The translations under genes and the position numbers were made by a program. A stretch of 64,000 bases of DNA from the sequence record PZ295659.1, one strand, 5' to 3'. Below the pieces are notes generated by a model. It had not been told where the DNA came from and did not search any database. It saw only the letters and a program-made list of their open reading frames with translations. The stretch comes from a phage. Below are positions 57,242-57,589 of this stretch, piece after piece (position 1 is the stretch's first letter; every line of letters starts with the position of its first letter).

Positions 57242-57589
57242 TCAATACGGTTTAGCATCAAATTTTCTTTCAATTTCAGGCGTGAAATATAGTTCTTTAC
57301 CACGCTTAGAAAAGCGACCGATAATATGATAATTATTTTCGTCGAACGTTATATTACCGAGGTCCATAGCTTTTAACCAATCATCAATACTTCTGTGCAG
57401 TTTTATATCAAAATTCCAGTATTGAGAACTATTACCACGGATACTACAAGCAGATTCAGTAAAACAACTACTATAAATCTTGTCTTTAGGAACTACTAAT
57501 TGATAGACACCTTTAATAAACTGAGGACCTTGCCACTTTGGCTGTTTCGCATCTTCTTCTAATAGAATAGGGTAATAATTAAAATTCAT
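57242..57589 (-). CDS. hypothetical protein (115 aa) inserted between frd and td
   Basis: ORF whose ATG overlaps the frd stop (ATGA) and which ends 16 nt before the td ATG; no recognisable motif. Confidence 0.5.

Follow-up and report, generated by a model that had tools for sequence, protein, structure and literature searches.

This study concerns a 115-amino-acid (aa) open reading frame (ORF) that lies between frd and td, the genes of dihydrofolate reductase (DHFR) and thymidylate synthase, in a 64,000-nucleotide (nt) stretch of phage DNA (record PZ295659.1), hereafter called the window. The ORF (57242..57589, minus strand; PHROG 1928; predicted OB-like beta-barrel) belongs to the td.1 family. 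On balance we favour the view that the product of td.1 is an OB-like binding protein, dispensable yet strongly conserved, which is co-expressed with DHFR and was imported into this genome by inter-genus recombination. We are confident of what td.1 is and of how it arrived; our confidence as to what Td.1 binds is low.

The td.1 gene and its distribution

An earlier note on this DNA placed a 115-aa gene at these positions between frd and td. The placement and the protein start quoted there agree with the ORF translation; the strand was not given. As had been claimed, the start of the ORF overlaps the stop of frd: the ATG at 57589-57587 and the TGA at 57588-57586 together form an ATGA (57586..57589, minus strand), which is a translational-coupling signal. 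The coupling proposed in the note is borne out in that the ORF is positioned for termination-reinitiation at this ATGA. The distance between the end of the ORF and the ATG of td, given as 16 nt, is actually 15 nt (57227..57241, minus strand). This spacer, TTATATAGGTGCTAA, is a part of the imported cassette and contains a Shine-Dalgarno-like AGGTG (57231-57235, minus strand) serving td.

The length of the ORF alone is weak evidence for a gene, since several antisense ORFs in the window reach 150 aa or more. Comparison with the Tequatrovirus alleles of T2, RB14 and FriedrichMiescher gives a ratio of nonsynonymous to synonymous divergence (dN/dS) of 0.04-0.05, as low as that of td and nrdA, and third codon positions hold 26-30 of the 36-40 differences. 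Homologues of the protein are found by tblastn in 563 phage records, and its AlphaFold2 model, obtained with a 29-sequence alignment, has a mean pLDDT of 92.9 and a pTM of 0.85. The low dN/dS, the number of records with homologues and the confident model make the ORF a real gene, which codes for a protein and is under strong purifying selection.

The window genome is a Mosigvirus (RB69-like) with phage SF as the closest match (96.5% across 2.2 kb). The ORF is identical at the nucleotide level (100%) to an annotated hypothetical gene of SF, and exactly the same protein is encoded on 44 public contigs, Mosigvirus phages SF and Shf125875 among them. The protein matches PHROG 1928, a family annotated as "function unknown" (E 9.2e-36, profile positions 2-125 of 126). 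The same gene is named td.1 in the T2H entry AY262132.2; in the RB14 record it appears as "RB32ORF229c hypothetical protein, flanked by 9 bp repeat", and it is RB32ORF229c in RB32 as well. The identity of the ORF to its T2 and RB14 counterparts is 94% for amino acids and 88.5% for nucleotides. Thus td.1 is already known, and the suspicion that it could be a conserved and characterised frd-td gene of the reference T-even phages proved half right: it is conserved and annotated (T2H, RB14) but not characterised. RB32ORF229c / td.1 is discussed in no paper of the searched literature; the mobE paper cites the T2H accession and says nothing further on td.1. Elsewhere the same ORF is labelled "dihydrofolate reductase", "reductase" or "putative glucose-1-phosphate adenylyltransferase"; these labels look like annotation errors and could propagate.

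The gene is indeed extra relative to T4: both T4 and RB69 lack td.1, and frd and td overlap directly there. It seemed extra because these phages served as the reference, and T4 turns out to be the exception, with about 360 Tequatrovirus and Mosigvirus records carrying the allele group. The exact count by megablast is 362, with 14 records at >=95% identity and 348 at 80-95%; those of the former that were examined are Mosigviruses, and the latter are of Tequatrovirus type. Judged from the identity bands of the search in which SF was the best match, the gene is present in approximately a tenth of the Mosigvirus-like records and in most, by a wide margin, of the Tequatrovirus-like ones. The comparison of the frd-td junction across T-even genomes that the earlier note recommended finds td.1 in most of them and confirms its absence from T4 and RB69. 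The wider family comprises ~560-600 phage records and is confined to T4-like (Tevenvirinae) phages of enterobacteria, where it occupies the slot immediately 3' of frd.

Import by recombination and the structure of the junctions

The synonymous divergence (dS) of the ORF from Tequatrovirus is 0.63-0.79, whereas that of the flanking genes is 1.0-1.3 (frd.1), 1.15-2.8 (td), 1.7-1.95 (nrdA) and >2.5 (frd). A similar contrast is seen in the amino-acid identity to T2: Td.1 reaches 94%, but Frd only 58% and Td 84%. Between the window and SF the ORF shows 0/348 nt differences, while the flanking genes have dS of 0.11-0.23. The borders of the anomalous segment were located with informative sites, defined as those separating ORF-less Mosigviruses from ORF-bearing Tequatroviruses. 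The last 15 such sites of the window frd, up to frd nt 575, are all of Mosigvirus type; in td the Tequatrovirus type is found only at nt 16, 18 and 19, within the first ~20 nt, and the Mosigvirus type prevails from nt 21 on. The breakpoints are sharp (left 57599-57589, right 57208-57206). The informative sites together with the contrasts in dS and amino-acid identity show that td.1 resides here on a tract of ~385 nt (approximate extent 57207..57589, minus strand) which evidently came from a Tequatrovirus-like phage and was recombined into a Mosigvirus backbone. The opinion that this is not an obvious mobile insertion holds insofar as no mobility enzyme is encoded, but the gene does lie on a sharply bounded tract recombined in from another genus.

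Compared with RB69, the window contains a clean 363-nt insertion. The 8-nt direct repeat TAAATGAA borders this cassette at both ends, with the left copy at 57592-57585 and the right copy at 57229-57222 (both on the minus strand), and removal of the sequence between the copies recreates the RB69 frd/td junction. The frd-td overlap of T4 and RB69 shares with the window both the ATGA signal and the frd sequence upstream of it, but the downstream partner of frd there is td, whereas in the window it is td.1, and td is uncoupled and dependent on the AGGTG of the cassette. In other words, the ancestral ATGA overlap of frd with td gave way to the imported tract; the ATGA now serves the ORF, and td gets the ribosome-binding site of the cassette. 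The frd-td ATGA was reportedly described by Purohit and Mathews in 1984 as a classic case of overlapping, translationally coupled genes.

The td.1 of T2H (RB32ORF229c) is of the same family and sits in the same slot as the window gene, but the spacers differ. Tequatrovirus td.1 is separated by 20 nt from frd (or overlapped by an frd that is 11 codons longer) and by 45 nt from td; in the window the left spacer is lost, giving the ATGA overlap, and the right one is shortened to 15 nt. The remaining 15 nt correspond by homology to the ends of the Tequatrovirus spacer of 45 nt. In every Mosigvirus copy 29-30 nt of this spacer are missing, but its ends, with the AGGTG/AAGGT ribosome-binding site of td, are retained. 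The missing part is the ~30-nt TAGCTTCATAAAATGTATTATAATTTATAT contained in the spacer of T2 (L009:3349-3393) and also in those of RB14 and FriedrichMiescher. It resembles a T4 middle promoter in having AGCTTCA, similar to a MotA box, and after it the -10-like TATAAT/TAATTT. Possibly TAGCTTCATAAAATGTATTATAATTTATAT is a td promoter that was lost on entry of the cassette into Mosigvirus.

The left junction varies too. A 2-nt insertion (TATAAAAATGA replacing TATAAATGA) removes the usual frd stop in RB14 (L010:2397-3011), Shf125875 and AlbertHofmann (L012, L013:894-1511), and the resulting Frd of 204-205 aa overlaps the first 11 nt of td.1. The differing frd ends therefore define three types of frd/td.1 junction: a 20-nt gap, an 11-nt overlap and the 4-nt ATGA overlap. 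The left repeat copy of Tequatrovirus keeps a vestigial ATG AAA TAA, that is, the first two td codons and a stop. This pattern suggests that td.1 was inserted into a T4-like junction in the Tequatrovirus lineage. At the same time, the deep conservation of td.1 elsewhere shows that the slot was anciently occupied; both gains and losses of td.1 must have occurred.

Other ORF-bearing Mosigviruses (PHB12, Shf125875, AlbertHofmann) have an entire Tequatrovirus-type frd and a 20-24-nt frd-ORF spacer, and the arrangement found in the window and SF is therefore a secondary recombinant. In these two genomes an RB69-type frd is joined straight to the ORF at an ATGAA microhomology, and the ATGA overlap was thereby created. 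Gain or loss of td.1 has also been recent, since a single species, Mosigvirus phapec2, includes both the ORF-bearing AlbertHofmann and the ORF-less PhAPEC2.

Predicted fold, conserved residues and the wider family

The remote homology search and structure prediction that had been advised gave different outcomes: searches of PDB with profiles of 29 and 34 sequences returned only chance-level matches, whereas the AlphaFold2 model is confident. The secondary-structure elements assigned by DSSP to the model are E6-12, E27-34, E62-64, H68-77, (E80-82), E86-96 and E99-104. Their order fits that of the OB fold, b1-b2-b3-helix-b4-b5, in which the helix is located between strands 3 and 4, and on this high-confidence model Td.1 would be a small beta-barrel. 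Structure comparison found no solved structure, known OB domains included, with significant similarity to the model. The lists of weak structural matches are dominated by OB-fold proteins (HIN, Teb1, Cdc13, S1, SSB, RPA, Stn1-Ten1, RecO, PriB and cold-shock domains), and the BFVD matches are exclusively uncharacterised proteins of T4-like phages, extending to those of Pectobacterium, Serratia, Erwinia and, more weakly, Aeromonas. At the level of sequence the protein has zero matches in Pfam, NCBIfam and PADLOC at E up to 10, and only chance-level matches (E above 1) in PDB. A Pfam scan of all family members and paralogues gave scattered single matches only, with E above 0.01.

Across 34 family sequences G27, G91, K95 and G97 are invariant and Q16, W19, Y29, F93 and F102 are nearly so; no Asp, Glu or His is invariant among them. 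The family signature comprises an N-terminal QxxW, the motifs G-[IV]-Y and GN, and a GRFxKxG...F close to the C-terminus, and the window protein has every signature residue (Q16, W19, G27, Y29, N79, G91, F93, K95, G97, F102). It is rich in aromatic residues and contains 16 K+R versus 15 D+E, with an isoelectric point (pI) of 7.7; pI values in the family are mostly 8-9. Such a mildly basic pI is compatible with nucleic-acid binding but is not diagnostic of it. A DNA-mimic anti-restriction protein of the Ocr/Arn type was rejected, as the surface is not strongly acidic and the pI is 7.7.

HMMER, run exhaustively over 1.84 billion representative proteins, matched 24 clusters only, nearly all of 95-130 aa. 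The long matches P0026 and P0030 were discarded as repeat or retroelement artefacts, and P0012 as a chimera on a scrambled contig. Members that have diverged to 25-47% identity are present in Kanagawavirus, Winklervirus, Klebsiella T4-like phages and Moonvirus, as well as in Erwinia, Salmonella, Edwardsiella and Kosakonia phages. The gene lies directly 3' of DHFR in every context examined, and the frd stop overlaps its start in Mosigvirus, a 61%-identical metagenomic lineage, Kanagawavirus, Winklervirus, Klebsiella phages and Moonvirus. The identity of the window Td.1 to distant lineages (32-47%) is similar to that of Frd (44-47%); this parallel divergence fits a long vertical co-inheritance of td.1 with frd.

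In several genera td.1 is followed by a second small ORF which is its paralogue (hhalign probability 98.5%, E 2.3e-15). The paralogues share the motifs QKKW, HG[LI]Y and GRFxKxG and have a ~15-residue insertion after the conserved Trp. Such tandem copies are present in Kanagawavirus (L005:2817-3176), Winklervirus (L006:2814-3185), a Klebsiella phage (L007:2790-3143) and two metagenomic contigs (L017:3332-3673, L018:3320-3679). Moonvirus records have two matching places as well.

The protein WP_146639004.1 (P0038), from a 169-kb contig of a Salmonella enterica assembly, is a 316-aa in-frame fusion Frd-NEITRGGN-Td.1. It bridges the 90% cluster of the window protein to T-even DHFRs, so that this cluster mixes DHFRs with Td.1. 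The fusion was not accepted as Rosetta-stone evidence: it occurs in frame in 0/40 of the best phage records and is hence rare or an error. It may be a sequencing error arising at an A-run. In the 100-kb contig OR941409.1 a truncated td.1 homologue is accompanied by a duplicated Y04J/Inhibitor_I24, a split td and inverted nrdA fragments; most likely this contig is a T4-like phage of Klebsiella type that was misassembled or has undergone heavy rearrangement.

Genomic context, possible role and comparison with known systems

The order of genes in this region, assigned with Pfam, is gp32 - FRD2 - DUF5417 (frd.1) - frd - ORF - td - DUF5496 (nrdA.2) - nrdA - nrdB. The frd gene (57586..58173, minus strand; DHFR_1, E 4.6e-21) encodes a DHFR of 195 aa and is of Mosigvirus type from end to end, and td (56366..57226, minus strand; Thymidylat_synt, E 3.2e-98) encodes a thymidylate synthase of 286 aa and is intronless. 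A terminator scan of the window found no terminator-like site on the minus strand from frd.1 to nrdA.2. There is neither a promoter-like nor a terminator-like site at either end of the cassette in the window; the closest minus-strand matches of these kinds are located inside frd (57692-57665) and past frd.1. Rfam and tRNA scans of the frd-td region gave no matches. Palindromic stem-loops of 11 and 10 pairs are present in the frd.2/frd.1 gap (58447-58476) and in the nrdA.2/nrdA gap (56058-56080), and both are terminator-like in the scan on the plus strand only, i.e. antisense to the genes. The part of the window at 52535-56022 contains nrdA, a 53-nt gap and an uninterrupted nrdB of 392 aa. With no mobE, no nrdB intron and an intronless td, this segment is devoid of the homing elements of the T4 nrd/td region.

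We propose that td.1, a real accessory gene of the td.1 / RB32ORF229c / PHROG 1928 family, would be expressed. It is probably transcribed with frd.1, frd, td and nrdA.2 as a single unit, and its translation would proceed through termination-reinitiation after Frd. In the model the b1-b2 loop (K15, Q16, K18, W19) and the b4-b5 hairpin (G91, R92, F93, K95, G97) could form an OB-type ligand cleft. Td.1 would be an adaptor without enzymatic activity that binds single-stranded nucleic acid or a protein partner, working beside the co-expressed phage proteins of nucleotide synthesis and replication. Given the absence of td.1 from T4 and RB69, the gene is probably dispensable. A ligand-binding adaptor co-expressed with DHFR is our best guess. 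Our computations speak neither for nor against the two roles put forward in the earlier note, one linked to thymidylate metabolism and one as anti-defence cargo.

The main rival is that td.1 is anti-defence or host-takeover cargo, a small early protein which rides the early nucleotide-metabolism transcript and neutralises a host immunity factor, e.g. of a nucleotide-depletion or DNA/RNA-sensing system. A variable presence within genera and even within one species, movement between genera and tandem duplication in several of them would all be expected of such a gene, as would its small size, dispensability and lack of enzymatic motifs. However, a dN/dS of 0.04, as low as in td and nrdA, is unlike that of typical arms-race genes, the position beside frd is stable across many genera, and the mildly basic protein is no DNA mimic. 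We regard this role as unlikely. Still less likely, in our estimation, is a more specific proposal in which Td.1 would represent a hitherto unrecognised OB-like class that physically partners phage DHFR or the deoxynucleoside triphosphate (dNTP)-synthesis complex, for example as a tether to single-stranded DNA at the fork, or would guard the nucleotide supply from a host nucleotide-depletion defence, with the tandem paralogues acting as heterodimers.

It is very improbable that td.1 is a passive hitch-hiker of little or no function, kept through linkage to homing elements (the td intron with I-TevI, mobE) and frequent recombination. It is true that td.1 lies ~570 nt from the I-TevI homing site, that the boundaries of the tract are sharp and that 79 records have both the ORF and I-TevI. 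Nevertheless, selection must act on the protein itself to account for the dN/dS of 0.04 and for a foldable protein that persists in many genera at identities as low as ~25-30%, and ~283 ORF-bearing records are without the td intron. The same counts rule out a mutual exclusion of td.1 and the I-TevI-bearing td intron, such as a competing mobile element would cause, because 79 records have both, RB3 and Yersinia phage PST among them; ~283 records have td.1 only and ~127 have only I-TevI or its remnants. Any residual negative association of td.1 with I-TevI is confounded by shared ancestry.

The BASEL genomes annotate td.1 as "putative homing endonuclease" (e.g. bas39_0071, bas47_0067), meaning a free-standing enzyme that would cut ORF-less frd/td junctions and spread by double-strand-break repair. 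The presence/absence polymorphism, the co-converted flanks and the short flanking repeats are in line with this annotation, but the BASEL paper describes recognising such elements through indels seen when genomes are aligned, and it provides neither evidence from domains nor a specific basis for this label. The earlier note saw no homing-endonuclease signature, and this stands: searches of Pfam and NCBIfam at E up to 10 reveal no catalytic motif or domain of the GIY-YIG, HNH, LAGLIDADG, His-Cys box, PD-(D/E)XK or EDxHD type, and the predicted OB-like barrel is not a GIY-YIG, HNH, LAGLIDADG or PD-(D/E)XK fold. As no nuclease motif, conserved catalytic-type residue or nuclease fold is found in this protein of 115 aa only, and as its divergent orthologues, located in the same slot, have changed in parallel with Frd, a sign of a deep vertical history, the label is unsupported and can be considered effectively excluded.

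The value of these results is mostly corrective. td.1 is unusual only against T4 or RB69, most sequenced T-even-type phages have it, and a homing-endonuclease label without support is spreading in databases. The window also provides a tidy example of T-even genera swapping a single small gene with base-pair-sharp boundaries and rewired coupling signals. If a host defence factor, DHFR or the dNTP-synthesis machinery proves to be bound by Td.1, this protein would be a widespread component that could not be discovered from work on T4. In that case T4, the phage used to define the dNTP-synthetase complex, would by chance be missing one component.

Several known systems resemble td.1 in part. PeSL-type morons are mobile cassettes of T4-type phages bounded by their own early promoter and a stem-loop or terminator; unlike them, the td.1 cassette of the window has no promoter- or terminator-like boundary sites. 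T-even phages also possess free-standing homing endonuclease genes, seg and mob (PMC2988022). Their patchy presence between conserved genes and the co-conversion of short flanks are shared by td.1, which differs from them in the lack of a nuclease motif or fold, in its much smaller size and in its deep vertical conservation in one slot. A further likeness is of a structural kind: the predicted b1-b2-b3-helix-b4-b5 order of Td.1 fits that of OB-fold proteins binding single-stranded nucleic acids (SSB, RPA subunits, Stn1/Ten1, S1, cold-shock proteins and the T4 gp32 core), and, like these proteins, Td.1 appears in the model to have conserved aromatic and basic residues in the usual ligand loops.
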